64,000 nucleotides of DNA from Candidatus Omnitrophota bacterium (GTDB lineage Bacteria; Omnitrophota; Gorgyraeia; Duberdicusellales; 4484-171), in contig JAAEQW010000256.1 in assembly GCA_024231025.1 (NCBI GenBank), positions 2,954 to 66,953 on the forward strand, read 5' to 3'. Positions 23,837 to 58,822 of this stretch are shown here, in pieces; within the stretch, counting starts at the first letter, position 1; every line of letters starts with the position of its first letter. The translations under genes were made by a program, and so were the position numbers. Under the pieces are notes generated by a model. That model was not told the DNA's origin, searched no databases, and saw only the letters and a list, made by a program, of their open reading frames with translations.

Positions 23837-24042
23837 GTTGTAACTTTCTGTTTTTCAAAGGGTTATGACTTTTTTTGCTTTTTTCTTGCATTCCGTGAAA
23901 GGATATGTTATAAATGAAGAACTGGATTTAGTAAGCGGTTTCACATTATTTGGAAAAATGAACTTATACTTATCAGGGGAGGGATCAGCTTATGTTGATT
24001 TGGTAAGGTCGTAAGTTCGCTTAACACAAATTGGAGCGAACA

Positions 24043-27000
24043 ATGATTTTACAATTACAAAGAAGACGGGCGTCGATTTCGTTTAGAGCAGTGGCAATAA
24101 TCGTTACCACTGTTTTTTTATTTTCTGTTTTTTCACTATACTTAAGCAAGTCACATCGGGTGTATGCATCAGCATTGCCTTATATGTCTGCACCGGCAAA
24201 GCTAGTTAGCACTAGTAGCACCTTTAACCCTCCTTTATTGCGTGGGATAAAACTTCATGCCGATAATCCATTTAAAATTGATTTTATAGTTGACCAGGGC
24301 GATTTTAGCCGGTCATCTAGTGAGTTAGAAGAAGAAACTAAGCGTTTAATTAAGTATTTTCTGGCTTCAATCACCATTCCGGAAGAGGATTTATGGGTTA
24401 ATCTTTCGCCTTATGAAAAAGATAGAATGGTTCCTAACGCCTTGGGTCTTACTGATATGGGCCGAGATCTTTTGGGGGAAGATTACGTTCTAAAACAATT
24501 AACCGCTTCCTTAACCTATCCGGATAGCCCTTTAGGGAAAAAGTTCTGGGATAAGGTTTATGAGCGCACCGAACAGCTCTATGGAACGACTAATATCCCT
24601 GCAAATACTTTCAGTAAAATTTGGATTATGCCGCAAAAGGCAGTGGTTTATGAAGACCGCAGTGGTGCCTTTGTTGCCGAGAGCCATTTGAAAGTTATGA
24701 TGGAGGCTGATTATTTTGCTGCGCAAAAGAATCAGCAGACCATAGACCATAGACTACAGACCACAGACCACAGACCAGAGACCAGAGGCCGTAAACCGGA
24801 CACCGTAACTGATGTTTCGGCTGCAATCATGAAAGATGTGATTTTGCCGGTAATCGAGGAAGAAATAAACACTGGTGCACAATTTGCTCACTTGCGTCAA
24901 ATTTATCACTCTTTAATTTTAGCGACATGGTTTAAAAAGAAATTAAAGCAGACCGCGCTTGAAAAAGCTTATATAGGTAAAAACAAGATAAAAGGCGCCG
25001 ACACCAGTGATCCGCAAATTAAAGAGAAAATTTACAACCAATACTTAGAAGCTTACACCAAAGGCGCATACAACTATATTCGCCGCGATCTCGACGTAAA
25101 AACAAATCGCCGTGTTAGTCGCCGCTACTACTCAGGCGGATTCACTACTGCCGGAGAAATGGATGAAGCATTTGATGCTAGGCCACTAGAGAGGCTTCCG
25201 GCCGGGCAAAGCCCGAGTGATTTTGATAACGGACCATCAACTCTTTTCCAGACTGATTTATCAGCTCTTTTAGGAGATGGTGAAGAAGTTAACATGAGTC
25301 GTCATTTTCGCACATCAGCACAAGCAGAAACAGTGACAACGGGGCTAATGAACGCATTAGAAAGCAAAGGAATAGTTTTTAGTCCAAAACAATGGCAGGG
25401 TTATGGTCATGCGGATGCATACACTCGTAATATGATAGGTAGAATTGTTACTGTAGTCGGGGAGGTAATAGATAATGATTCGTCAGATCCAATTAGTTTG
25501 TCTGCCCAAGACATGGCCTTTCAGCGCGAAAATGGAAGAGACCCGATTCAATTGCACTTGACGAAAGAAGATAAAGGTAATACGACTACGTTTTCAATTA
25601 CCTTTGTTAGTCAGAGTAACCAGGGTATTGTTGATATTGCGCTAGACAACGGTGGTCAAATTGTAGAAACTGATCATCGTCCAATTGCCTCTAATCGGAT
25701 GGCACGATTTAAAACCTGGGATCCAAAAGCTGCCCAAATGCTTGACTCGCTACAAAGATTAGAACCAACTGCCAATTTACTCGCGATAATTACCAATGGT
25801 CGACTTTTAGATTGGGTGCAGTTGCTTTGGAAGGGCGCGGTTCCGTCTTTAGATGAGCTAAAAAATTATACATTGGGTGATGTAGCTGATCATTTGAGTT
25901 GGCCAAGTTCGCTTACAGAAGGAATAGATGAGTTAATCAGCTCAATGAAAGCAGCGACTTTAATTGAATATGAGGAGATGGACGAAAATGGCGAAATGGT
26001 AAAAGTGACAAAAGAGTGGAGAGATCCCACAAATAGTTTAGCAAATAGGCTTAAAAAAGCGCAAAAGAGAAAAGATGCAATAGATAAAGAATTTGCTCCA
26101 GCGATAAAGCGGCTGGAAGCTCGCAGAAAGACAATAGCCGCGAGCGATGAAGGTGAAGAAGATAAAAAAAAGGCGATAGCCGAAGTGGATAAAGCGACTG
26201 CTATTGAAAAAAACAAGGCAGAAGCCCGAAAAAGGAGAATAGACATTAGCTTGGCTCGTGCAATCTCAAAGTATTCGGCGGCTCGGCTTTATCCGGGGCG
26301 CGAACCTCGCCTTTTCTTGCCAACACCAAAATACACTCTAGGCGAAATACAGGATTACCTGTCAGCTTTGTTAAATGAACCTGATGGAATTTCGACAAAA
26401 GTTGCGCAAGAAACAAGCGCAAGAGAAAAAAGGCTTGAGCTTTCAGGCAAAGCAGCTGAAATTTTGGTTAATGTATTGAGTAATGAGGGTGTAGAATTTC
26501 AACCAAAACGAGAATCCAGTGAACTTGCACCTACACCTCTTGAGCACGATGTTTACATCAAAGGCATAATTTCTCAAATTACTGCGATGCTTAATCGAGT
26601 AAAGGAAACAGACAGATTAACCCAAAGTGATTTACTCTACCAAGAAATTAATAGCAATAGTGTAATTAACCTAAACGTTGAAAGGGCGCCTAGCGAGCAA
26701 GGAACTGTATTGTCTGTTGCTTGGCATCGTACCAGTAGTAGCCCTGCCATTACGGATAACGCCCAGGGGGTAATTAATCTTACTATTTCAAATGAGGGCG
26801 AAATCACTACCTCTTTAGGGATTATTAAAAATGGTAAAGGGGGATTACCCGCAAGAACTTTTTCGCCAGAAAGCCCCAAAGGCCCAACCCCGGCAGATCG
26901 CCCATCATTACTGCCTGGTGGCTTCAACAGTCCCCCTGTGGTGGCCGGCAATAAGCCAAGCGATGATACTACAATAACAATTTCGCAAGATCCCCATGAA

Positions 27001-27747
27001 AAAAGTGGTGATTTAGCCGAAGTTTTAATTGACGCCTTAAAAAGCAAGGGAATAGCGTTTCAATTAAAAAGAGGTGCCAACGCAGTTAATAGTGGCGATT
27101 ATGCTGCTAAGATGAATAACGCTGTTAGCGAAATGTTTAGATGGGCAATAGCGACAGGATCTGGCGAATTATTTCCAGAAGATATGTTATTTCAAGGCAA
27201 TCATGGTGAAGATGTAATTAATTTAGCGGCTAACAGGAGTGTTAATCCTCAAGAGAAAATTACTGTTCGTTGGTATCGCAGGGGTGATCCTTCTGTGACT
27301 GATGATCAAGGGAGGGTTGATATTGTCATCTCAGAAGAGGGTCGAGTGAGTATTTTCCACCAGTTAATTAAGCCGCTTGACAGAAATGCCTTAGACGGTG
27401 CGCCTTTGGTTGGCGGTGGAGCAAGAACCTGGGGCGATGTTCTAGATTCTCCGGTATCAGAAGATAATGTGCCGTTTACCGAGCGTAACGGGGCGACAAT
27501 TCGGGTTAAGAAAAAGAAGTCACAAGTGGCTAAGAAGGAAATTAAAGGTAAAGGTAAGGGTAAGGACAGTTATGTTGGCGGTATCGATTTGGATACCGAT
27601 AATTGGGACGTTCAAGTTAAAGGTGGTGGAGCAGAGGTTTCCAGCTTTACGGATCTTCCTTTTGATGTTAAAAATTTGCGCGGGTTCACGCTTGAAATTT
27701 GTGATCGCAGCAGTGTTAACTCGGACGAATTGTTTGCCGTAAGATAG
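24043..27747 (+). CDS. Giant (about 1234 aa) signal-anchored protein of unknown function, paralog A. It has a conserved N-terminal domain shared with the 54668-58822 gene, internal repeat modules, and a Lys/Glu-rich coiled coil
   Basis: Long uninterrupted ORF with a GGAG Shine-Dalgarno 6 nt before the ATG at 24043 (the tracker start at 24031 is TTG). N-terminal TM helix. Residues ~45-375 align with the other giant ORF (ASALPYMSAP...WVNLSP.EKDR...GEDYVLKQLTASLTYP...RRYYSGG). Confidence 0.6.
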   Translation: MILQLQRRRASISFRAVAIIVTTVFLFSVFSLYLSKSHRVYASALPYMSAPAKLVSTSSTFNPPLLRGIKLHADNPFKIDFIVDQGDFSRSSSELEEETKRLIKYFLASITIPEEDLWVNLSPYEKDRMVPNALGLTDMGRDLLGEDYVLKQLTASLTYPDSPLGKKFWDKVYERTEQLYGTTNIPANTFSKIWIMPQKAVVYEDRSGAFVAESHLKVMMEADYFAAQKNQQTIDHRLQTTDHRPETRGRKPDTVTDVSAAIMKDVILPVIEEEINTGAQFAHLRQIYHSLILATWFKKKLKQTALEKAYIGKNKIKGADTSDPQIKEKIYNQYLEAYTKGAYNYIRRDLDVKTNRRVSRRYYSGGFTTAGEMDEAFDARPLERLPAGQSPSDFDNGPSTLFQTDLSALLGDGEEVNMSRHFRTSAQAETVTTGLMNALESKGIVFSPKQWQGYGHADAYTRNMIGRIVTVVGEVIDNDSSDPISLSAQDMAFQRENGRDPIQLHLTKEDKGNTTTFSITFVSQSNQGIVDIALDNGGQIVETDHRPIASNRMARFKTWDPKAAQMLDSLQRLEPTANLLAIITNGRLLDWVQLLWKGAVPSLDELKNYTLGDVADHLSWPSSLTEGIDELISSMKAATLIEYEEMDENGEMVKVTKEWRDPTNSLANRLKKAQKRKDAIDKEFAPAIKRLEARRKTIAASDEGEEDKKKAIAEVDKATAIEKNKAEARKRRIDISLARAISKYSAARLYPGREPRLFLPTPKYTLGEIQDYLSALLNEPDGISTKVAQETSAREKRLELSGKAAEILVNVLSNEGVEFQPKRESSELAPTPLEHDVYIKGIISQITAMLNRVKETDRLTQSDLLYQEINSNSVINLNVERAPSEQGTVLSVAWHRTSSSPAITDNAQGVINLTISNEGEITTSLGIIKNGKGGLPARTFSPESPKGPTPADRPSLLPGGFNSPPVVAGNKPSDDTTITISQDPHEKSGDLAEVLIDALKSKGIAFQLKRGANAVNSGDYAAKMNNAVSEMFRWAIATGSGELFPEDMLFQGNHGEDVINLAANRSVNPQEKITVRWYRRGDPSVTDDQGRVDIVISEEGRVSIFHQLIKPLDRNALDGAPLVGGGARTWGDVLDSPVSEDNVPFTERNGATIRVKKKKSQVAKKEIKGKGKGKDSYVGGIDLDTDNWDVQVKGGGAEVSSFTDLPFDVKNLRGFTLEICDRSSVNSDELFAVR
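24736..24784 (+). repeat. Heptanucleotide microsatellite [(C/T/G)AGAC(C/T)A]x7 inside the coding sequence of giant gene A
   Basis: Units cagacca, tagacca, tagacta, cagacca, cagacca, cagacca, gagacca. They encode TIDHRLQTTDHRPETR. Confidence 0.8.
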
Positions 27748-38831: not shown

Positions 38832-40415
38832 ATGGAAAAAGGTTATCTTTCTTTAGTTCTGCATGCCCACCTTCCTTTTGTTCGTCATCCTGAATTTGAA
38901 GACTTCTTAGAAGAACGATGGCTTTTTGAAGCGCTCAGCGAAACTTATATGCCATTGCTTGAGATGCTTGAGGGCCTAACGGCTGATGGCGTTGATTTTT
39001 GTTTTACTTTAAACCTCTCGCCTTCTCTTTGTAGCATGCTTGATGACGGGCTCCTAAAAGATCGTTACCTGCGCCATCTAAATAATATGATTACTCTTTG
39101 CGAGGGAGAGATCGATCGACATCGCTTTGATCCAAGCTTTCATAGGGTAGCGCTTATGTATTACCATCGTTTTACTCGCACGAGAGATAAATTTGTAAAT
39201 AATTATGACCGTAATCTTATTGCGGAGTTTAAAAAATATCAAGATCGCGGTGTTTTAGAAATTATTACTTGTGGAGCAACGCATGGCTTTTTGCCGCTTT
39301 TACGAGTTAACAAAGAGGCCGCTAGAGCACAAATCAGAGTTGGTGCAAATTCCTATAGAAAGTTTTTTGGTACAAATCCAAAAGGAATTTGGCTTCCTGA
39401 GTGTGGATATTATGAGGGAGTTGATAAATTTTTAAAAGAGGAAGGCATAAAATATTTTTTAACCGAAACTCATGGGATAGTTTTTGCCGATCCTCGCCCC
39501 AAGTTTGGTGTTTATTCCGGGTACTACACTAAGAATAAAGTGGGCGTATTCGCCAGAGACAGCGAATCTTCTAAGAGTGTTTGGTCGGCAGAAGAGGGTT
39601 ATCCTGGTGATTACAATTATCGTGAATATTATCGTGATGTTGGGTTTGATGCCGACTATGATTATATAAAACCTTATATTTCTCCGTGTGGAACGCGAAT
39701 TTTTACCGGTATAAAGTATTATCGCATTACCGGCCCTACCTTAGAGAAACAGCCGTATAATCCTGAGATAGCAGCAAAAACTGCCGCAGATCATGCCGGC
39801 AATTTTATGTTTAATCGCCAAAAGCAGATCGAGCACTTAAGTCCTATGCTAGATAGAAAGCCGATTATTGTGTGCCCTTATGATGCGGAGTTGTATGGGC
39901 ATTGGTGGTTTGAGGGAGTGCAATGGCTAAATTTCTTAATTCGTAAAATATGTTATGACCAGAACACAATAAAACTTACTACTCCTTCAAGGTACTTACA
40001 GATTTATCCGAAAAATCAAGTAGTTACTCCAGCGGCGTCAAGCTGGGGGTATAAAGGTTATTACGAAGTGTGGCTCAATGGTTCTAATGATTGGATTTAC
40101 CCGCACCTGCATCGCGCGCAAGATATGATGGGTGAAGCGATTAAGGAGCATGGTTCGGGCGGCGATGTCAAAGACAGAGTCCTAAACCAGATGGTTAGAG
40201 AACTTCTCCTGGCGCAGTCTAGTGATTGGGCATTTATCATGAAGACCGGCACTTTTACTGAATATGCCAGCAAGCGCACAATTACCCATTTAGAACGATT
40301 TCATCTTTTAAAAAGTTATCTTGATAGAGGAAGCTATGATTTTGAGGTTATTGAGGATATTGAAGAAAAAGACAACCTTTTCCCCGAAATCACTTATTCT
40401 GTTTATTGCCCCTAA
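38832..40415 (+). CDS. Glycoside hydrolase family 57 enzyme, branching-enzyme type (1,4-alpha-glucan branching enzyme)
   Basis: N-terminus GYLSLVLHAHLPFVRHPE is typical of GH57 branching enzymes. Confidence 0.75.
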   Translation: MEKGYLSLVLHAHLPFVRHPEFEDFLEERWLFEALSETYMPLLEMLEGLTADGVDFCFTLNLSPSLCSMLDDGLLKDRYLRHLNNMITLCEGEIDRHRFDPSFHRVALMYYHRFTRTRDKFVNNYDRNLIAEFKKYQDRGVLEIITCGATHGFLPLLRVNKEAARAQIRVGANSYRKFFGTNPKGIWLPECGYYEGVDKFLKEEGIKYFLTETHGIVFADPRPKFGVYSGYYTKNKVGVFARDSESSKSVWSAEEGYPGDYNYREYYRDVGFDADYDYIKPYISPCGTRIFTGIKYYRITGPTLEKQPYNPEIAAKTAADHAGNFMFNRQKQIEHLSPMLDRKPIIVCPYDAELYGHWWFEGVQWLNFLIRKICYDQNTIKLTTPSRYLQIYPKNQVVTPAASSWGYKGYYEVWLNGSNDWIYPHLHRAQDMMGEAIKEHGSGGDVKDRVLNQMVRELLLAQSSDWAFIMKTGTFTEYASKRTITHLERFHLLKSYLDRGSYDFEVIEDIEEKDNLFPEITYSVYCP

Positions 40416-40416
40416 T

Positions 40417-41997
40417 ATGAGCAAATCACCTACAAAAATTATATTCATCTGGCATATGCATCAGCCTTGCTATCGCCATCCGAGTCGGAACTATTATATT
40501 TTGCCGTGGGTAAGACTTCATGGTGTAAAAGATTATTACGGAATGGCAAAGGTGGTGGAAAAATTTGAAGAAACAAGAGTTGTTTTTAACTACAGCGGCA
40601 TACTCCTAGAGCAGCTCACAGATTATGTAGAAAATCAAGCCCAGGATTATTATGGAATACTAAGCTTAAAGAATCCAGCAAAACTCACAAAAGAAGAAAA
40701 AAGTTTTATAATCGAAAGGTTTTTTTCGATAAATTTTGATCGGCACATAAAACCAAATCCTCGTTTTTTACAACTACATACTAAAAAGGCTTCGCATAAG
40801 CAAAATTTTACACTAAAAGATATCGGTGATTTACAGGCGATTTTCAATTTATGCTGGTTTCATCCTTATACAATAAAAAAAGATAAAAATTTAAAAGCAC
40901 TTATCAAGAAAGGTAAAGATTACACCCAGCAGGACCGACGTTATATTATTGATAAGCACTATCAAGTATTAAAGGAAATTTTTCCTTTATTGAAAAAACT
41001 AATAGCACGTAATCAAGTAGAACTAACAATTACGCCACATCACCATCCGATAATGCCGTTAATCTATGATACCGATGTTTTAAAGGAAATTCCTTATCTA
41101 AAACGTCCAGCATTGCGCTTCTATTCTCCGGATGATTGCCACTGGCACCTCAATCGCGCCAAAGAGGTTTTTCGACATATTTTTGCTGTTGATCCGAATG
41201 GGAGTTGGCCATCAGAAGGTAGCGTGTCGGAGAACGTATTGGATATATATGCTAAGGAAGGATTTAATTGGGTTGGTACTGATGAGGCGATCCTGTTTAA
41301 AAGTTTATCTAATGAATCCGTGCCGTATGACATGATCAAAAACCAGCGGCATATGATTTATTCACCATATAATTTTAGAGGAGTAAATATATTTTTTAGA
41401 GACAGAAACCTTTCTGATGCCATGGGTTTTACTTATTCCGGTTGGGATGATTCTGTTTTTGCTGCCAATGATTTATTGGAACATTTTAAAAGAACACACA
41501 ACCATATAAAAAATCTCTCACAACAGCGCGTGATAACGATAATTATGGATGGTGAAAACGCATGGGAGTACTATAATAATAGTGGAGTAGAATTTTTAGA
41601 AACACTTTATTCGTCATTAGAAAAAACTTCTATTCTTACAACTTCTACCCCCTCAAAATTTTTACAAAAAGGGTCCAGTAAGCATCTAGAGCGCTTATCG
41701 CCGGGGTCGTGGATTAATGGTGATTTTGGAGTATGGGTTGGCTCTAAGGAAAATAATCGCTATTGGGATATTTTGCGAAAAATAAAAGATACAATAGATC
41801 GTTCAAAAACCGATAAAGAAACTTTACAAAAAGTGAAAGATTACTTCCATCTTATTGAAGGCAGTGATTGGTATTGGTGGAACACATTTGAAGATTTTAG
41901 CGGAGAGTTTAAAAACATATTTTTTACATACGCTCAAGAGATATATGCTCTTTTGAACAAAAAAATACCACTTTATTTGACAGGAAGAAATGGGTAA
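40417..41997 (+). CDS. Glycoside hydrolase family 57 enzyme (second paralog)
   Basis: N-terminus IIFIWHMHQPCYRH. Start taken at the ATG at 40417, right after the previous stop; the tracker start at 40321 overlaps the upstream gene. Confidence 0.7.
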   Translation: MSKSPTKIIFIWHMHQPCYRHPSRNYYILPWVRLHGVKDYYGMAKVVEKFEETRVVFNYSGILLEQLTDYVENQAQDYYGILSLKNPAKLTKEEKSFIIERFFSINFDRHIKPNPRFLQLHTKKASHKQNFTLKDIGDLQAIFNLCWFHPYTIKKDKNLKALIKKGKDYTQQDRRYIIDKHYQVLKEIFPLLKKLIARNQVELTITPHHHPIMPLIYDTDVLKEIPYLKRPALRFYSPDDCHWHLNRAKEVFRHIFAVDPNGSWPSEGSVSENVLDIYAKEGFNWVGTDEAILFKSLSNESVPYDMIKNQRHMIYSPYNFRGVNIFFRDRNLSDAMGFTYSGWDDSVFAANDLLEHFKRTHNHIKNLSQQRVITIIMDGENAWEYYNNSGVEFLETLYSSLEKTSILTTSTPSKFLQKGSSKHLERLSPGSWINGDFGVWVGSKENNRYWDILRKIKDTIDRSKTDKETLQKVKDYFHLIEGSDWYWWNTFEDFSGEFKNIFFTYAQEIYALLNKKIPLYLTGRNG

Positions 41998-44071
41998 AGT
42001 TTATTTTTTATTCGGTATTCATAATCATCAACCAGTAGGTAATTTTGATCATGTTTTTGAATACGCCTATAAGCGTTGTTATTTTCCTCTTCTAGAGACT
42101 CTCGCCAATTTTCCTAAAATAAAATTTAGTGTACACATCAGCGGTCCCCTTTATGATTGGATCTTAAAAAATCGTAAAGAGTATGTAAGTCTTTTAAAGG
42201 AGATGGTTACTCGCGGCCAGGTTGAGATAATCAGCGGCGGATATTACGAACCGATTTTGCCTTTAATTTCCGATCGTGACAAAAAAGCTCAAATCCAAAA
42301 AATGAATGATTTCATTTCAAAAGAATTTAATTGCACCGCTAGTGGTCTTTGGCTTGCCGAGCGGGTTTGGGAGCCAAACTTACCAGCGATAATTAATCCT
42401 TGTGGATTAGATTATACTTTTTTAGATGATACTCATTTCCGTTTTGCCGGAATCAACAAGAATGAATTCACAGGTTATTATACAACTGAGGACCAGGCTT
42501 TTGGTTTGAAGATTTTTCCAATCAGCAAAGCGCTAAGATATAAAATACCTTTTTCAAGCGCGCAAGAGGGGATCGATTTGCTTAATTCGTTTGCTAGCGA
42601 AGAAGATGTGCTAGTTACATTTTTTGATGATGGAGAAAAATTTGGTCTTTGGCCGAATACTTATGATTGGGTGTATGAGAAGGGCTGGCTTAAAACATTT
42701 CTAACGTATCTTAGCGATTCATTAACTATTGAGACGATTAAGCCGAGTGAGGCAGCACTTAAATTTTCTTCCAGCGGAATAGTTTATTTGCCTACCGCCT
42801 CCTATGAGGAGATGGGGGAGTGGGTTTTATCTGCGGATAGTTTTAATACCTATGACAGATTGAATAACTTTTTAAAGAATCAAAATAAATTTGAAGAATT
42901 CAAAAATTTTGTGAGGGCAGGATTTTTTAGAAATTTTAATCGCAAATATCCGCGCCTTAATTACATGCACAAAAGAATGCTTTCGGTTAGCAAAAAGCTA
43001 CATGCGTATTTGAAAAATGGTGATAAGGCATTTACGAATTTATTTAAGGCCCAAACTAATTGCAGCTATTGGCACGGTGTTTTTGGGGGATTTTATTTGG
43101 GTCATATTCGCGGGGCAGTATATGAAAATCTTATTTGTGCCTTAAATCAACTGGATAAGAAAATTCAAAAGCACGATTTGGTAGTGGAGGAAGAAGATAT
43201 TGATTTAGATGGCGTAAAAGAAACAATTGTAAAAAATAAAAAAATGATCTGTTGTTTTTCACGTAAGGGTGGCACTCTTCTTGAATGTAGCCTGCGTAAT
43301 CCAGCAATCAATTTAACGAACACAATTACTCGTACGGTTGAATCCTATCATAAAAAAATTAAAGAAAATGTGAATGTTGATGCCTCTGTTGCTTCAATCC
43401 ATGATATAGTGGTTCAGAAAGACAAGGATTTAGATAAATTCCTGATTTACGATAATTATGAAAAAGTTAGCCTGATTGATCACCGCTTAGATAAAGATAT
43501 TACGATTGCCGATTTTAATACCGGAAATAAAATCACCACGTTTAGCGATAAAAATTATAACCTTTTAATAAAAAAAAGCACAAAGCAAGCTTCCCTAAAG
43601 TATAAATACGATTCGCAAACAATAAGTTTTACCAAAGAAGTAATCTTAAAAGGGGCATCTTCTTTCGCTGTTGAATATTCACTTAACAATTATTTAGAAA
43701 ATTGTGATTTTGGCGTTGAGTTTAATTTATTTTTACCTTCATTGAAAGATATTGTTGCTGTATCAGAAGGAAAATCTTCCAAAAGCGCTGGTCCTAAAGG
43801 CGTTACGATCAAAAAAGAAAATAAAAAAATATCTTTAAATGAGCCCAAAGTGTTTGATAGCTGTTGTTCGTTTGTTATAATAGGTAATCATAAAAGAATA
43901 AGTTTAGAGTTTGGTTGCGAAGACGCCTGTGTATTTACGATGCCGCTTTATTCGGTATCCTCATCTGAAGCGGGATTCGAAAAGGCGTATCAGCAATTGT
44001 CAGTTCTTTTTAAATTTTCAGGGGAGCGTAAAAAAATTCATTTTACCTTTAAGGTAAAAAAAGGGGAGTAA
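41990..44071 (+). CDS. Glycoside hydrolase family 57 enzyme (third paralog; alpha-amylase / 4-alpha-glucanotransferase-like)
   Basis: N-terminus VYFLFGIHNHQPVGNF. 693 aa with a C-terminal extension. Confidence 0.7.
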   Translation: MGKVYFLFGIHNHQPVGNFDHVFEYAYKRCYFPLLETLANFPKIKFSVHISGPLYDWILKNRKEYVSLLKEMVTRGQVEIISGGYYEPILPLISDRDKKAQIQKMNDFISKEFNCTASGLWLAERVWEPNLPAIINPCGLDYTFLDDTHFRFAGINKNEFTGYYTTEDQAFGLKIFPISKALRYKIPFSSAQEGIDLLNSFASEEDVLVTFFDDGEKFGLWPNTYDWVYEKGWLKTFLTYLSDSLTIETIKPSEAALKFSSSGIVYLPTASYEEMGEWVLSADSFNTYDRLNNFLKNQNKFEEFKNFVRAGFFRNFNRKYPRLNYMHKRMLSVSKKLHAYLKNGDKAFTNLFKAQTNCSYWHGVFGGFYLGHIRGAVYENLICALNQLDKKIQKHDLVVEEEDIDLDGVKETIVKNKKMICCFSRKGGTLLECSLRNPAINLTNTITRTVESYHKKIKENVNVDASVASIHDIVVQKDKDLDKFLIYDNYEKVSLIDHRLDKDITIADFNTGNKITTFSDKNYNLLIKKSTKQASLKYKYDSQTISFTKEVILKGASSFAVEYSLNNYLENCDFGVEFNLFLPSLKDIVAVSEGKSSKSAGPKGVTIKKENKKISLNEPKVFDSCCSFVIIGNHKRISLEFGCEDACVFTMPLYSVSSSEAGFEKAYQQLSVLFKFSGERKKIHFTFKVKKGE

Positions 44072-48132: not shown

Positions 48133-48852
48133 ATGAAAGCACTTATATCAACTTTACTAATTTTTTTTGCAGTTACTTTTAATTCCTTTTGTGCCCAAGA
48201 AGGCATCAAGGCGCGTTTTGAAGGGAAAGATACCTTAACTTATTCTGTTTATTTTAATGGATTTTTTTCTGGCAAAATTAAATGGGTTTATGTCGGCACC
48301 CAAAAAATTTCCGGTAAACAAGTTGATGTGCTGCATCTTGATTCCGACACTAAGATTTTTTCTTTTTTGGACATGACAAGCAAAGAGAAGATTTTCCTCG
48401 ATAGTCAAACTCACTTGCCGATCAAAGTCCAACGGGATATTGTGCTATTTGGCAAAGACGAAAAAATCGAGGAATTTTACAATCAAGATGAGGGCTTTGT
48501 AAGAATAACTCGCAGTACCGCGCAAGAAGTTCCACAGGAGATATTACGCCAAGACGCCCCAATTCATAATATTCTGGCACTGCTTTACTTTTTTCCTAGC
48601 GATGTTGATTTAGATAAAAAAAATAAAGCAGTTTACAATCTTCCTACACGTAAGGTGACAATTACAACTAGAGGCACGCGCAAGCTGCGCCTTGGCAAAG
48701 AAAAGGTAGAAGCTTATTTTCTTGTTGGTAAAGGGGCAAAGAGATTTAATCTTTGGCTGGATAAAAAACGCAAAACCCCTCTGCGTTTAGAGTTTTTATT
48801 TCCGGTTGGAAAAGTGACCATTGTTAAAGATTTACTCAATGAGCAAGAGTGA
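48133..48852 (+). CDS. Secreted hypothetical protein
   Basis: Signal peptide (MKALISTLLIFFAVTFNSFCAQEG) followed by a beta-rich domain. No confident family call. Confidence 0.4.
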   Translation: MKALISTLLIFFAVTFNSFCAQEGIKARFEGKDTLTYSVYFNGFFSGKIKWVYVGTQKISGKQVDVLHLDSDTKIFSFLDMTSKEKIFLDSQTHLPIKVQRDIVLFGKDEKIEEFYNQDEGFVRITRSTAQEVPQEILRQDAPIHNILALLYFFPSDVDLDKKNKAVYNLPTRKVTITTRGTRKLRLGKEKVEAYFLVGKGAKRFNLWLDKKRKTPLRLEFLFPVGKVTIVKDLLNEQE

Positions 48853-49854
48853 GTTTTTACCGCCAAAAGGGTCTTTTTCAGTTAATTTGTTATAAGGGTC
48901 AATTACCCATGAGTCACCGGCAACAAATTTGTAACGGTATTCACCTTTACTGAGAGGAAGATTTATACTCCAAATATCATTGCCAATCTTTTTTAACTTA
49001 TAGCTATTGTTCTTTTGCCATCCGTTAAAGTCACCCACAACATATACGTCAGACAAGTCTTTATCGCGATAAAATAGTGGAGCCCAGCTGGCTAAGCGGG
49101 TCATTGCCTCTATTTCATCGGTGAGGTTTTTGTAATCTTGCCCACCGCGAGAATCCGCTTTGTATTGGAAAATATCTTTTCCCGATGAAGCAGCTTCTCT
49201 TAAATGAACATTTGCCCTTATTGATGTTTTCAGTAAAAGATCGCCCAGATGTTTTTGCACTCGTTCCATAAATTCTTTAACAAAACGAGAACGCTTATCT
49301 ACCTGGGTAAATAAGTAAAAAGGTGCCGGAGCATGCCCTTGGAATTCTTTAAGCATAATTAATATGTTTTTAAGGATCTCTATCCCTCGTAAAGAAAAGT
49401 CACAGGTGCCGATCGGCACAAGAGAGTACTTACTCGCGGCCAGGGCGTTTAATGTGATCATTCCCAAATTAGGGGGACAATCTAATATGCAGTAGTCAAA
49501 ATCAGATGATATTTTTTTTAAAAGAGAAGAAAGTAGGGTAAATCGATCATCTCTTTTTAACAGCTCCTGTTCCATTGTTGCCAATCCAAGAGATGACGCG
49601 ATGAAGTAAAAGTTATCCGATACGGTGTCGTATAGCTTATCATCGGGATACAAATCGTCATGACAGAGTTTTACTAAGGCATCGGTTATTGTGTAGGTAT
49701 TATCTTTGTTAAGAGAGAAAGTGGCGTGTGCCTGTGGGTCAAGATCGATAAGCAATGTTTTGTGGCCCTTCTTGCTTAAGCCAGCGGCTAAATTTACAGC
49801 AGTGATAGTTTTGCCACAGCCACCTTTTTGGTTGATCACCGAAATTGTTTTCAT
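48832..49854 (-). CDS. ParA/MinD-type P-loop ATPase fused to a C-terminal CBM48 (AMPK-beta-type) glycogen-binding module
   Basis: Deviant Walker A (KGGCGKTITAVNLAAG) and ParA core (LLIDLDPQAHAT). The C-terminal ~85 aa are a classic CBM48/GBD (VYVVGDFNGWQKNNSYKLKK...W...LPLSKGEYRYKFVAGDSWVIDPYN). Confidence 0.8.
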   Translation of the reverse strand: MKTISVINQKGGCGKTITAVNLAAGLSKKGHKTLLIDLDPQAHATFSLNKDNTYTITDALVKLCHDDLYPDDKLYDTVSDNFYFIASSLGLATMEQELLKRDDRFTLLSSLLKKISSDFDYCILDCPPNLGMITLNALAASKYSLVPIGTCDFSLRGIEILKNILIMLKEFQGHAPAPFYLFTQVDKRSRFVKEFMERVQKHLGDLLLKTSIRANVHLREAASSGKDIFQYKADSRGGQDYKNLTDEIEAMTRLASWAPLFYRDKDLSDVYVVGDFNGWQKNNSYKLKKIGNDIWSINLPLSKGEYRYKFVAGDSWVIDPYNKLTEKDPFGGKNSLLLIE

Positions 49855-54667: not shown

Positions 54668-57600
54668 TTACATCGATAACTTTTTAAATAGATCGGTGAT
54701 TTCCTTTGAACCAAGTATTTTGTAGCCGAATCCGGGAAAATCCTTAATTGTTTGTTCGGAGGCCTTGTAAGTATGGAAGACCTTTAAACCTTTGCCTTTT
54801 ACAGTTATATTGCCTCTATCTGTTAAGTCAACGCCTCCAAGGGTGTCGCGCTCACCTTGATAGTTACTGTCTTGCCCGTATTCCTGTTTGATCCCCTCTA
54901 ATGCATCAGAGGTTGTACTTATGACTTCAACATCAGCCATATTTAAAGTTTTCAACATTTCCTCCAATGTTTCAGAAGAGTTCTCAATGAGAAGAGCCAA
55001 AGCTATATTTGAAATGAGACCCAGATCCTCTAATTCATCTTTCAAATCCCAGGGTGCTTCAGCCGATCCTTGAGCAAGAGATTCACCAAATAAATCAGAT
55101 AAGCGCTCTTCTTCATCGTTATCAATTCCAGAAAGGTCATGACCTTCTTGGCGAAGGTGTCTTATAAAAGCGTGAAATGTTTCATGACCGTCACGAAATC
55201 TCTTAGCAAAGTTAAGATCGATTTCTTTAGGGTCTTTATTAAGGCGCTTGGCTAGTTCAGGTATTTGATCTTCTAATTCTTCGTCGGAGGTGTAAATAGT
55301 TTGTTTACCGGTTGCTAAATTTTCAACCATCCAGCCAAAAGATTTTCCACCAAGCATCAACGGTTTCGCAATAACTTGCATCTGGCGCAGAATTGTTTTA
55401 GCCAGCGCTTTGTTTCCATTGGGGTGACTTTTCATAATTCCTGCTGCTTGAGGGATTGATTCTAAATATTCATGAGAGTAAGCAAAGCGGTATCCTTGGG
55501 CTCTATGAGCATGAGTTGCACCATCTTTAAAGCGGGCGTCTGTGGCTTTTTCAAAAGCAGCATTTATCGGACTGTTATTATAGTTATCCGAGGCTAAAGC
55601 TATTGCGGTGAGTCCGTCAATTACTTCTTTTTGTGCTAGAAGATTATGTATATTTTGTGCGCTTAAAAGTGCACACAATGCCTCAATTACTTTGTCGGCA
55701 CCGTTGTTGTTGTCGATAACATATTGAATTGCCTGAGGTAAAACTTTTTTTGCTGAATCTAGAGTATCAGATCCACCGTGTTTGCCACGTAGAAGATGTG
55801 AAAGAGCAATAGCAATATCCTCACTACCCCCTCGGATAATTGAATATGCATCATCGCTGGCAAGAAGATATCTTACTTCTTCTTCGCGGGTTTCCGGTTG
55901 CCAGCCTATTGCTTTAAGGCCTTGGGCAGAATTGAGACCAAAATTTTTGCTCTGATTACCTAATCCATGGCTTAGGGTTGAGGTGACGACGGCTCCAACG
56001 TCGTTAGGAAGACTCTTTTTTTGTGTTTTAGCTAGGGCAGCGCTAATGTAAAGAATAGCGAATTCTCTTTTTCTATCGTCTTTTTCATAAATAGGACGTC
56101 TGTAAACGTCTTTTCCGGGACCAATAATTTGAGCCAACCCAACAGGATTATGTCTGAGATAATTTTCGTAATCTGTTTCTTCGCCTCGAACGATCTGATA
56201 TAGTAAATCTAATCCACCCGGTACATCATTAATTAACTCCATCAATTTGGCTTCAGTGCTTTCGTCATAAAATATGTACCTATTATCGATGCCGATAGAC
56301 CCTTTGAAAATTTCAATAATTGCTTTTTTAGGGTCGGAAGGTAGCGCTAATGATTCTTTTATTGTGTATCCGGCTAGGGCGAGAGTCGCGGTACCCGCAA
56401 TACCTCCTCCAAGTTTTTTAAGAAAGTCACGTCGCGGCATACTCATGGTGTATGCTTGTTGCCCGGCTGCTCGCAGGCGTTCTTTAGTTTCTGCCATTTC
56501 CGCAGGAGTGCTTGATTTAACGATTATATCAACACCGAATCGCTGCTTGATTATTTTATCCAATTCGTAGGGGTCCTTGTTGTCGCTCAGATTTTGGTTT
56601 TGCAAGTATTCCCAGAGGTCACTTATTAGCGAAAGTCCGTTTTGTGATAAGTGAATGTTAATTTGTGCCTCCAAAGCGCTTATTCTTTCTTCATGTTGGG
56701 GCGGAATCTTATTGCGCCCTAGGGCCCAAGAAATCGCAAAGATGTCGGCTAATTTTTCATTATGTTCAAATCCAATAAGTTCAAAAATGAGGTGAGCGGT
56801 TTCATGACCGTCAATAAAACGAATTGCCATTTCAGGGGTAACCGTTACATCAGTTATTCCCAAACCCTCAAGAAGTTCTTGGAAATCTTGAATATATTCC
56901 TCAATAGTTTTATCGTTATGATGAATTGTTATACTGCCGTCAGCGCCGGGTACAAATAATCCCTGTAGATTGTCATTTAGCATTTTTTCCATCGCCTTTG
57001 TGCCTTCTGATCCAGATGCACCATCATTCTCAACGGGTTCAATAGATATTGATTCATCTGATACCCCTTCGCTGTCTTGAGTCCAGGTAACCTTAACTTG
57101 GCGGCCGCGATACCATGCCAATTGACTTAAAATTCTTTTTTTCTGCTCATCGGAAAGTGCCTCATTCTTTTCAACAGTATCCATAAGTTCTTCAGCTGTA
57201 TCTCTAAAATCAGCGTTGATGGTTACCAATACAATGTGAAATAGAAAAAACCCTGGCTTTGATTCTTCTTCAATCGCTATCGATTCATCTAATACCCCTT
57301 CGCTGCCTTGAGTCCAGGTAATTTTAACTTCATTCTTGCCAAGCTTTTTCAGATTTTCTAATATTATCTCCTTTTGCTTATCAGAAAGTGCCTCATTCTT
57401 TTTGATATCTTCCATAAGTTCTTCAGCTGTGCCTTTAAGATTGGCTTTTATGATCATTATTGGAGAGGTAAATATAACAGCACCTCGCTGATTATTATCT
57501 TCATAGACTACCTCTTGCTCGATGTGTGTTTCTTCTGATAGAGGCAGTGGTTCAATTTTGGCCATGTTTTTTGGGGTTGAAGCACAGGCGATTTCCAGTC

Positions 57601-58822
57601 CACCTGCGACTAAAACAACTGCAAGGTTAGTTAAAGGGTTTTTTTTCAATTTCTCTGCAACTTTACCAGATTTTCCAGCTAATGGTTGTCGACCTTTTTT
57701 TACAACATTGCCGGTTTTTTTAGCAAATTTGACACCGCCAGAGTAATAGCGGCGATTGATGTGTTTTTTGGAGGATGGGTCAAAATCTTTTTTGATGTAA
57801 TCGTAGACACCTTTTTTGTATGCTTGAAGGTATTGATCGTAAATTTTATTTTTTAATTCAGGGTCATTATGTTTTATGCTGTCTATCTTTTTCTGATCAG
57901 CGGAAAGTTGAGTTACAATATGTTCTTTTAGCTTTTGCTTAAACCAGGTAGCTAAAAGTAATGAGTGGTAAACTTGGCGGAGATGTGAGAAATTCTTACC
58001 ATAATTTACATCACGTTCGATTTCGGGCAAAACCTCTTCCTTAAGTATTTCTGAGGTTATTTCGTGTATTTTTTCTTTTTGTCCGGCGCTTGCTTTAGGC
58101 GATTGGCGCAGATGACTTTGGTTTTCCATTGCGAGATAATCTTGTTCCGACATTACCTTAAGATAGCTCTCAGTTATAATTGCTTTGTCGTCATCTTCGT
58201 ATATTGTGGCACTTTGGGGAACAATCCAAACTTTATTGAAGGTGTCTATTGGAATTTTAATTGTACCGAAAAGCTCGCTGGCTTTAGCATAAATTTTTTG
58301 CCAGTATTGTTTGCCGATTTTATTTTCAGGATAAGTTAAAGAGGCTGTTAATTGTTTTAGGACATAATCTTCACCAAGCATATCCGCGCCCATATCGGTT
58401 TGGGCGAGTGTTTCAGGAATGACGCGATCTTTTTCGTGAGGAGAAAGATTAACCCAAAGGTCGTCTTCGGGCATAGTTAACGCGGCAAGAAAATAGCGGA
58501 TTAGTGTGTTGCTTTCTTCTTTTAATTTTTCTTTACCGAAATTGCTATTTCCCGCATCAACAATGAATTCAAATTTAAAAGGGTCATCGCCAAATACTTT
58601 AATTCCTCGCAGTATTGGTGCATCAAACGCAACGCTTGCATCAATTAGCTTGGTGGGGGCGGACATGTAGGGCAGGGCAGAGGCGTAGGCTGACGATGTT
58701 TGCAGGGCCGGTGTGCGCATAATCAATGTGCTAATTCCCGCAAGCAGCACCCCTGATGCGATAAAAACTGCTAAAATCTTAAAGGAAATCGACCCTTTTC
58801 TAAGTACTGATAGTTTATGCAT
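54668..58822 (-). CDS. Giant (1384 aa) signal-anchored protein of unknown function, paralog B. It has a conserved N-terminal domain shared with 24043-27747, a tandem ~75-aa repeat, two DGHETxH motifs, and an internal Tat-like motif
   Basis: Uninterrupted ORF with an N-terminal TM helix (ILAVFIASGVLLAGISTLIM). Residues ~45-365 align with giant A. Confidence 0.6.
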   Translation of the reverse strand: MHKLSVLRKGSISFKILAVFIASGVLLAGISTLIMRTPALQTSSAYASALPYMSAPTKLIDASVAFDAPILRGIKVFGDDPFKFEFIVDAGNSNFGKEKLKEESNTLIRYFLAALTMPEDDLWVNLSPHEKDRVIPETLAQTDMGADMLGEDYVLKQLTASLTYPENKIGKQYWQKIYAKASELFGTIKIPIDTFNKVWIVPQSATIYEDDDKAIITESYLKVMSEQDYLAMENQSHLRQSPKASAGQKEKIHEITSEILKEEVLPEIERDVNYGKNFSHLRQVYHSLLLATWFKQKLKEHIVTQLSADQKKIDSIKHNDPELKNKIYDQYLQAYKKGVYDYIKKDFDPSSKKHINRRYYSGGVKFAKKTGNVVKKGRQPLAGKSGKVAEKLKKNPLTNLAVVLVAGGLEIACASTPKNMAKIEPLPLSEETHIEQEVVYEDNNQRGAVIFTSPIMIIKANLKGTAEELMEDIKKNEALSDKQKEIILENLKKLGKNEVKITWTQGSEGVLDESIAIEEESKPGFFLFHIVLVTINADFRDTAEELMDTVEKNEALSDEQKKRILSQLAWYRGRQVKVTWTQDSEGVSDESISIEPVENDGASGSEGTKAMEKMLNDNLQGLFVPGADGSITIHHNDKTIEEYIQDFQELLEGLGITDVTVTPEMAIRFIDGHETAHLIFELIGFEHNEKLADIFAISWALGRNKIPPQHEERISALEAQINIHLSQNGLSLISDLWEYLQNQNLSDNKDPYELDKIIKQRFGVDIIVKSSTPAEMAETKERLRAAGQQAYTMSMPRRDFLKKLGGGIAGTATLALAGYTIKESLALPSDPKKAIIEIFKGSIGIDNRYIFYDESTEAKLMELINDVPGGLDLLYQIVRGEETDYENYLRHNPVGLAQIIGPGKDVYRRPIYEKDDRKREFAILYISAALAKTQKKSLPNDVGAVVTSTLSHGLGNQSKNFGLNSAQGLKAIGWQPETREEEVRYLLASDDAYSIIRGGSEDIAIALSHLLRGKHGGSDTLDSAKKVLPQAIQYVIDNNNGADKVIEALCALLSAQNIHNLLAQKEVIDGLTAIALASDNYNNSPINAAFEKATDARFKDGATHAHRAQGYRFAYSHEYLESIPQAAGIMKSHPNGNKALAKTILRQMQVIAKPLMLGGKSFGWMVENLATGKQTIYTSDEELEDQIPELAKRLNKDPKEIDLNFAKRFRDGHETFHAFIRHLRQEGHDLSGIDNDEEERLSDLFGESLAQGSAEAPWDLKDELEDLGLISNIALALLIENSSETLEEMLKTLNMADVEVISTTSDALEGIKQEYGQDSNYQGERDTLGGVDLTDRGNITVKGKGLKVFHTYKASEQTIKDFPGFGYKILGSKEITDLFKKLSM
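57050..57470 (-). repeat. Intragenic tandem duplication (about 230-bp unit x2, roughly 80% identical) in giant gene B, encoding two roughly 75-aa modules
   Basis: Protein repeats TAEELMEDIKKNEALSDKQKEIILENLKKLGKNEVKITWTQGSEGVLDESIAIE and TAEELMDTVEKNEALSDEQKKRILSQLAWYRGRQVKVTWTQDSEGVSDESISIE. Confidence 0.8.

Follow-up and report, generated by a model that had tools for sequence, protein, structure and literature searches.

What are the two long genes of this locus, which begin with the same domain of no recognised family and then run into unrelated tails? The DNA analysed here (hereafter the window) is a stretch of 64,000 nucleotides from contig JAAEQW010000256.1 of a Candidatus Omnitrophota bacterium, and the two genes, called paralog A and paralog B, lie on its opposite strands. 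A preliminary description, drawn from the sequence alone, had proposed that they encode giant, signal-anchored proteins of a fast-diversifying surface or secreted effector type. We observed that A and B belong to a large family, found almost entirely in Omnitrophota, whose members carry a conserved head, a highly variable middle and a short conserved C-terminal module. Our reading, which we regard as an even call, is that this is an Omnitrophota-specific family of Sec-exported polymorphic effectors or surface proteins, in which the head and the C-terminal module would form a constant trafficking or anchoring frame.

The shared head and the C-terminal module

Both open reading frames (ORFs) were present as described, and the ORF listing confirmed their coordinates. 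Lengths are given in amino acids (aa), and residue numbers of A in the feature lines are counted from a TTG at 24031.

24043..27747, forward strand: paralog A, whole gene, 1,234 aa from ATG (ORF listing)
54668..58822, reverse strand: paralog B, whole gene, 1,384 aa, the NCBI entry GY858_05880 of a Candidatus Omnitrophica metagenome-assembled genome (MAG)
24169..25140, forward strand: conserved head domain of A, residues 47-370, SALPYMSAP...RRYYSGG (BLASTP, profile, AlphaFold model)
57734..58681, reverse strand: conserved head domain of B, residues 48-363 (BLASTP, sequence)

The ORF lister gave A as a frame of 1,238 aa (24031-27747, forward strand) opening at that TTG. Since a GGAG stands 7 nt 5' of the ATG at 24043, the ATG is the likelier start. 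The word 'giant' was too strong for proteins of this size, as relatives reach 4,969 aa.

The kinship of the two proteins through their N-terminal domain was clear. Residues 12-374 of A and 8-367 of B were 48% identical (177/368) in BLASTP, with an E value of 5e-117 and a shared domain of ~320 aa, and every motif quoted in the preliminary description could be located in the two sequences. A tblastn search with the head found no further copy in the 64-kb window. The head-coding DNA of A and B was 68-77% identical, and this only in patches, the longest common exact word being 14 nt. Because the DNA has diverged to this extent and shares no longer word, A and B are two old paralogs, and not the product of an assembly duplication. 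The protein sequence of B is identical to its deposited GenBank entry. A third paralog, P0001 (GY858_06675), is the best head match to A (58%) and carries the same locus-tag prefix as B, so that the source genome holds at least three copies of the family (A, B and GY858_06675). P0001 is only 485 aa long, lies on another contig (102,827 bp) of the same MAG and shows no recognisable C-terminal module at its end; this copy may have been truncated or be decaying.

Across the family the head is ~320 aa long and ends in ...(R/K)(K/R)Y(F/Y)SGG. Distant pairs of heads are still ~50% identical and 44 alignment columns are invariant, which argues for strong purifying selection on this domain. The earlier statement that the head could not be placed in a known family held in every sequence library searched. 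A and B gave nothing above threshold against Pfam, NCBIfam, PADLOC, PHROGs or PDB sequences (sub-threshold noise only, i.e. MCM_WH, CagS and eS25), a profile of 44 heads found 0 matches among PDB sequences at E<=10, and 72 relatives scanned singly had no Pfam match on the head or on the C-terminal module. We also predicted the structure of the A head with AlphaFold2 and compared the fold. The model was of usable quality (pLDDT 75.6, pTM 0.69, 132 residues above 90) and has long helices mixed with three beta-hairpins, and Foldseek found no fold match for it in the PDB (best E 0.27) or among the viral structures of BFVD (best E 0.18). The ClyA-type toxins NheA and MakE did appear in the PDB list, with TM scores of ~0.14 that are meaningless. 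On the strength of this model, the head looks like a new fold.

The preliminary description had held that A and B diverge completely after the head. This was not the case, since both proteins end in a degenerate copy of a module that is found family-wide:

27577..27744, forward strand: degenerate C-terminal family module of A, GGIDLDTDNWDVQVKGGG...VKNLRGFTLEI... (hidden Markov model (HMM), E 1e-6)
54671..54838, reverse strand: degenerate C-terminal family module of B, GGVDLTDRGNITVKGKG...IKDFPGFGYKI... (HMM, E 1.6e-4)

The HMM, built from 39 modules in related loci, matched residues 1180-1223 of A and 1325-1382 of B, in each case at the very C-terminus. The direct match between the two was weak (BLASTP E 0.028; GGIDL/GGVDL...VKG.G...). 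The copies in A and B are ~55 aa long; the family module has ~60 aa and starts with GGIDL, and the extensions after the module (0-66 aa) vary and are often acidic. Among 144 representatives, 110 had exactly one such module, ending 0-66 residues before the stop.

We further examined how far the two conserved ends depend on each other. In loci selected by their head, nearly all head-only ORFs were cut by the end of the locus, and 8 of 12 ORFs with the C-terminal module only were cut by its start. A scan of metagenome contigs made from the other side, with the C-terminal-module alignment, gave 85 ORFs. Of these, 32 were cut at the 5' end and 41 were complete and began with a head (i.e. 41/41 of the unambiguous complete ones). 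The remaining 12 had no head, and all of them are ambiguous (start at a contig edge, truncated upstream ORF or a single in-frame stop before the ORF). Head identity and module identity rose together (Spearman 0.76 over 5,799 pairs), and the minimal member, P0006 (438 aa), consists of a head, 15 residues and a C-terminal module. The coupling of the head and the C-terminal module is near-exclusive.

The family and the exchange of its middle

The recurrence of the head in the same genome and in related MAGs extended from the third paralog to a family that spans the phylum. A profile search over 1.84 billion cluster representatives (clusters at 50% identity) returned 8,404 clusters, 6,838 of them at E<=1e-30 and nearly all from Omnitrophota MAGs. 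The head occurs once per protein and always at the N-terminus, from residues ~2-50 to ~380, in proteins of 420-4,969 aa among the matches listed. A scan of one genome per species gave at least 588 loci, and 79 of them were kept for all locus-level analyses. The 79 come from Omnitrophota MAGs, counting some labelled 'uncultured Planctomycetales' and one labelled Candidatus Elulimicrobium. This last one (L036, DYOU01000064.1) holds a full member, and NCBI files its MAG in the Patescibacteria group; a further member, P0089, is labelled Pacearchaeota. The two labels may stand for mislabelling, mis-binning or a real spread beyond the phylum. Viral contigs were nearly free of the family (3 of 2.9 million).

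Within the best 80 of the at least 588 loci, a MAG held up to 4-5 copies. Eight loci (L003, L015, L017, L022, L055, L058, L061 and L066) had head-to-tail tandem pairs, with the C-terminal module of the upstream gene directly before the next head. Some genes were interrupted between the head and the C-terminal module, by an in-frame TAA in L102 (4823-10222) and by TGA..TAA followed by an ATG in L078 (2074-5649), and frameshift-like overlaps split the family genes of L060 and L071. Such copies may be decaying, may reflect sequencing errors or may be naturally split versions. The family was not described in three papers on Omnitrophota (10.1101/2023.11.21.568195; 10.64898/2026.06.07.730766; PMC10066038) or in the Lipocone preprint, which covers the searchable literature only and is no proof of novelty.

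The layout is fixed: a signal peptide and the head come first, then a variable middle, from 0 to about 4,500 aa in length, and last the C-terminal module. Head identity reached 80% or more in 657 pairs among 112 full-length members, and only 8 of these pairs showed any similarity between their middles at E<=1e-5. The pair P0124 and P0141 illustrates this, as their heads are 89% and their C-terminal modules 84% identical, and yet they have unrelated middles of 724 and 1,479 aa. When such proteins were inspected side by side, similarity stopped exactly after ...YFSGG and restarted exactly at GGIDL.... Since the breaks at YFSGG| and |GGIDL are so sharp, gradual divergence cannot account for them, and the middles have been replaced, as cassettes, at two fixed Gly-Gly junctions. 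The conserved head with fast-diversifying tails that had been proposed is thus found in a stronger form, as a wholesale replacement of the middle between nearly identical ends.

A four-residue motif, D-x-A-M (DxAM), was enriched 19-fold in the middles, with 261 occurrences where shuffled sequences gave 14 +/- 3.7 (counted in the related proteins P0121-P0264 and the loci L001-L079). It typically lies 1-36 residues past the head and 5-29 residues ahead of GGIDL, and it is seen between internal modules too. Its codons vary synonymously as in the background, so that selection acts on the protein and not on the DNA. The same observation, with no purine-rich pattern upstream, led us to reject the idea that DxAM is a fossil ribosome-binding site with its start codon. 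The motif could be a processing site or a hinge. Neither A nor B contains it. With ASALPYMSAP..., RRYYSGG, a weak C-terminal module and no DxAM, the two belong to a divergent subclade.

The middle of each protein, i.e. the putative cargo, was then taken apart by self-comparison and inspection of the sequence:

25141..27576, forward strand: variable middle ('cargo') of A (self-comparison, sequence)
25192-25662, 26284-26805 and 26998-27372, forward strand: three related modules of A (self-comparison)
25978-26280, forward strand: K/E-rich helical stretch of A (sequence)
57569..57670, reverse strand: second signal-peptide-like segment of B, residues 385-418, with a K-rich flank, LAVVLVAGGLEIAC, lipobox-like
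57038..57523, reverse strand: tandem repeat of B with a 77-aa period, residues 434-595 (46-50% identity, E 1e-21)
56582..56944, reverse strand: first HExxH module of B, residues 627-747, DGHETAH (HETAH at 673)
56345..56443, reverse strand: internal twin-arginine (Tat)-like signal of B, SMPRRDFLKKLGGGIAGTATLALAG, residues 794-826
54932..55315, reverse strand: second HExxH module of B, residues 1170-1297, DGHETFH (HETFH at 1213)

The three modules and the K/E-rich stretch that had been noticed in A were recovered by self-comparison, the modules being ~115-170 aa long (residues about 388-544, 752-925 and 990-1114). In B the tandem modules and the DGHETxH motifs are real, the two tandem units (residues 434-518 and 511-595) repeating with a period of 77 aa. 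The two HExxH modules of B are paralogous to each other by self-comparison. They share the HExxH of zinc metallopeptidases and had no sequence match in Pfam, NCBIfam or PDB; they are possibly zinc-binding.

The middle of B also carries two segments that resemble export signals. The first lies 22-55 residues past the head and includes a hydrophobic stretch at residues 395-418. Among the family proteins examined, about a dozen carry a comparable segment at a distance of 10-80 aa from the end of the head, with AxA or lipobox-like ends and positive charge on the N-terminal flank; that of P0198 is Tat-like (SRRRFLGML). The second, at residue 797 and hence not N-terminal, is the Tat-like motif SMPRRDFLKK followed by a hydrophobic stretch, which by eye agrees closely with the consensus S/T-R-R-x-F-L-K. 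The TIGR01409 model gave it 11.1 bits (E 0.4), which is below the cut-off of 16.7, and RR.FLK had 0 occurrences in 145,000 residues of other family tails. This site may be what is left of a Tat-exported precursor that was captured, or it may be an internal start. Because B holds remnants of both lipoprotein-like and Tat-like signal peptides, its sequence suggests that the segments are leftovers of captured precursor genes and that its cargo was assembled from such genes.

No homolog of the A tail was found in ~290 family proteins, in the 79 loci or in Joint Genome Institute (JGI) metagenome contigs, and none of the B tail in the same ~290 proteins and 79 loci or in 5.8 billion proteins, save for its own entry. 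Within these searches both tails are orphans, i.e. putative lineage-specific cargo.

Export, cargo and the alternative readings

The proposed role requires that these proteins leave the cytoplasm, and we therefore examined their N-termini.

24043..24168, forward strand: N-terminal leader of A, with an RRR n-region, a hydrophobic core and VYA|SA as putative signal-peptidase site
58682..58822, reverse strand: N-terminal leader of B, residues 1-47, with AYA|SA as putative cleavage site

By hydropathy, A and B have one N-terminal hydrophobic segment each, which in A consists of 19 or more hydrophobic residues after the RRR. Of the 136 members whose N-terminus is intact, 132 have an AxA-type site that precedes the conserved mature N-terminus (LPxPG) by 2-9 aa, in the pattern ...AQA|QDFxLPAPGVMV.... 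Because of these sites, and of those in A and B, the leader is probably a cleaved Sec signal peptide and not an anchor. The single N-terminal transmembrane (TM) helix of the preliminary description is seen as a hydrophobic segment in both proteins, while 'signal-anchored' is probably wrong; B has its second segment at 395-418. Beyond the leader, 90 of 144 representatives showed no hydrophobic segment at the hydropathy threshold of 1.6 used here, which places the head and the cargo on the same side of the membrane. We also counted in favour of export the presence of SecA, Lnt and LpxA genes in the window.

The cargo was mostly without annotation when 72 relatives were scanned with Pfam. The domains that could be named were SAM methyltransferases (including CheR-like ones), GHKL ATPases (HATPase_c), NUDIX, DnaJ, HTH, FHA, Fic/DOC, cytidine/MafB19-like deaminase, a receiver domain, HEAT and pentapeptide repeats, calcineurin-like phosphoesterase, HAD, phosphoribosyltransferase, M23 and M48 peptidases and GT1. 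No classical adhesin domain was among these annotations. Since the identifiable cargo acts on intracellular substrates, delivered effectors are favoured over simple adhesins. A predatory or parasitic lifestyle has been proposed for Omnitrophota (PMC10066038; 10.1101/2023.11.21.568195), and this is consistent with effectors.

Our reading, as Sec-exported effectors or surface proteins, would then work as follows. The precursor would cross the inner membrane through Sec and lose its leader, and the head and the C-terminal module would jointly serve as the constant frame that carries interchangeable cargo to the cell surface or onward into a host or prey cell. In A this cargo would be three copies of an unknown module with a charged helix, and in B the 77-aa tandem repeat, the HExxH modules and the signal remnants. 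The surface or secreted effector type that had been suggested remains an inference.

Several observations weigh against this reading. The cleavage call was made with a simple heuristic and no trained predictor. About a third of the members do have further hydrophobic segments; part of these are the C-terminal module's own stretch, and the remainder could place the cargo in the cytoplasm of the producing cell. No conserved secretion or outer-membrane partner was found beside the family genes of the 79 loci, or beside A or B. The intracellular-acting label comes from a minority of the cargo, most of which has no recognisable domain. The model of P0006 was too poor to judge whether the module docks on the head (pLDDT 61 overall, module below 50), and A and B themselves have weak C-terminal modules and lack the DxAM junction motif of the family.

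A bolder version of the effector reading is that the head and the C-terminal module are a bipartite recognition signal of an undescribed, Omnitrophota-specific export or delivery route, which would bring hundreds of effector cassettes from ultra-small cells into or onto hosts or prey, the Gly-Gly junctions and DxAM being processing sites that release the cargo. We offer this as a tentative possibility.

We think it unlikely that the head is instead an envelope enzyme or a ligand-binding domain (for lipid, glycan or peptidoglycan in the periplasm), and that these are multidomain envelope proteins with no trafficking frame.

A further alternative, which we consider improbable, places the proteins in the inner membrane, with the head as a periplasmic sensor and the cargo as a cytoplasmic output, on the pattern of histidine kinases or chemoreceptor-associated proteins. 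The HATPase_c, receiver, CheR-like methyltransferase, HTH, DnaJ and NUDIX domains of the cargo are indeed normally cytoplasmic, a second hydrophobic segment does follow the head in B and in the dozen or so members mentioned above, and one preprint takes comparable combinations of domains on long proteins to be regulatory architectures anchored in the membrane (10.64898/2026.06.07.730766). However, the leader has canonical cleavage sites, and the 90 of 144 representatives without a later segment would keep the head and the cargo on one side. The positive charge on the N-terminal flank of the post-head segments is the orientation of a signal peptide and the wrong one for a second helix leading from outside to inside, and Fic, deaminase and pentapeptide cargo and a wholesale exchange of cassettes are atypical of sensors.

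The family could also be taken for a classical polymorphic toxin system aimed at competing bacteria, with cognate immunity proteins. In favour are the conserved N-terminal part behind a Sec leader, the sharpness of the recombination breakpoints and, in some members, a Fic or MafB19-like deaminase domain as cargo. However, each of these two was found in only 1/32, and most payloads are unannotated or non-toxin enzymes; Pfam showed no known toxin domain in A or B. The variable part is internal and not C-terminal, and no small downstream gene recurred in the 79 loci, a test that would miss payload-specific immunity genes. The gene after A encodes SMC and the one after B TrmI. We regard this alternative as very doubtful.

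For practical purposes we can exclude an artefact, whether from assembly chimeras, from collapsed repeats or from pseudogenes in decay, since the ORFs of A and B are intact and their DNA has diverged, B is a deposited protein, the identical layout recurs in hundreds of independent assemblies and the head is under strong purifying selection, all of which outweighs the few related loci with interrupted copies (TAA in L102, TGA..TAA in L078 and the frameshift-like splits).

Genomic setting, known systems and significance

A and B are each solitary among housekeeping genes. Around A lie EtfBA, class II ribonucleotide reductase and SMC, and around B lie LpxA, an AAA protein, TrmI and ApgM; SecA, Lnt and MurJ are encoded elsewhere in the window. 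No neighbour gene recurred across the 79 loci, the sole large 'cluster' being antisense ORFs of the head itself. The window has a G+C content of 38%, no tRNA gene and no Rfam family above its gathering score. We also noticed a gene (48832-49854, reverse strand) whose product joins a ParA/MinD-type ATPase to a glycogen-binding module (AMPK1_CBM) and might serve to position glycogen granules. A cluster of three consecutive GH57 genes (38832-44071) and a DUF4912 gene are found within a few kb of this gene. Two of the GH57 ORFs (38832-40415 and 40321-41997, forward strand) overlap by about 95 nt, which may reflect a mis-called start.

We then compared the family with known systems of similar design, of which polymorphic toxins and effectors come nearest in logic, T9SS cargo (type IX secretion system) nearest in the C-terminal end and LapA-type adhesins nearest in having two conserved ends. 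Polymorphic toxins with a Sec leader and an N-terminal trafficking domain include Neisseria MafB and CdiA, as set out in the Zhang/Aravind framework. The Omnitrophota family resembles them in its Sec-type leader, its conserved N-terminal domain, the swapping of payloads at sharp junctions and the presence of deaminase and Fic payloads. It differs in that the payload lies inside the protein, with the conserved and obligatory C-terminal module after it (110/144, and A and B), in that no immunity gene or partner transporter is linked to it in the 79 loci, and in a head unlike the trafficking domains known to Pfam and NCBIfam.

The TpsA proteins of two-partner secretion (TPS) are likewise large to giant exports, with a conserved domain of ~250-300 aa behind the signal peptide as their sole common part. 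However, the TPS domain (PF05860) is a beta-helix that needs an adjacent TpsB, whereas the head is predicted to consist of helices and hairpins. Pfam found no PF05860 in A, B or the 72 relatives, and no TpsB (Omp85/POTRA) stands beside A or B, whose neighbours are EtfA, SMC, TrmI and ApgM.

The T9SS is a system of Bacteroidota. Its cargo proteins, otherwise unrelated to one another, resemble the family in combining a Sec leader with a short conserved module at the C-terminus, but they are not known to have a common N-terminal domain, and the T9SS C-terminal-domain models of Pfam and NCBIfam did not match the C-termini of A, B or the relatives. LapA-type RTX adhesins also have conserved modules at both ends of a long, variable and repetitive middle. 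They lack a Sec leader, unlike this family, and carry a C-terminal signal for type I secretion (T1SS) with RTX and adhesin repeats; no RTX domain (HemolysinCabind) was found by Pfam in A, B or the 72 relatives. For the C-terminal beta-barrel of autotransporters (type Va/Vc) and the YadA-type anchor there was no Pfam match, and the family module has only ~60 aa.

Within the same phylum, giant proteins of more than 10,000 to 100,000 aa have been described ('Archaeovorins' and dockerin-type proteins; West-Roberts et al. 2023), with many TM helices and SecA-like domains, and one preprint states that their N-terminal regions 'generally lack identifiable domains' (10.1101/2023.11.21.568195; 10.64898/2026.06.07.730766). 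They have methyltransferase, GNAT and GHKL ATPase domains and a proposed role in predation or host interaction in common with the family. In contrast, A and B have ~1,300 aa and one leader (with one extra segment in B), and Pfam found no SecA_DEAD or dockerin domain in either.

Together, these comparisons suggest that the family works like a polymorphic effector family and yet is a member of no described one, because the tests for the TPS domain, TpsB, T9SS, RTX, autotransporters, a C-terminal payload and an immunity gene all came out negative. The frame would be categorically new only if it is the address for an undescribed secretion route.

Omnitrophota are uncultured, ultra-small bacteria that are thought to be predators or parasites. 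Attention has so far gone to their rare giant genes, whereas the head family is far more numerous, with thousands of clusters and several copies per genome. If the frame is a trafficking address, the head and the GGIDL tail would provide a sequence rule with which the effector repertoire of any Omnitrophota genome could be listed, and the conserved head would be a handle for finding the machinery that recognises it.

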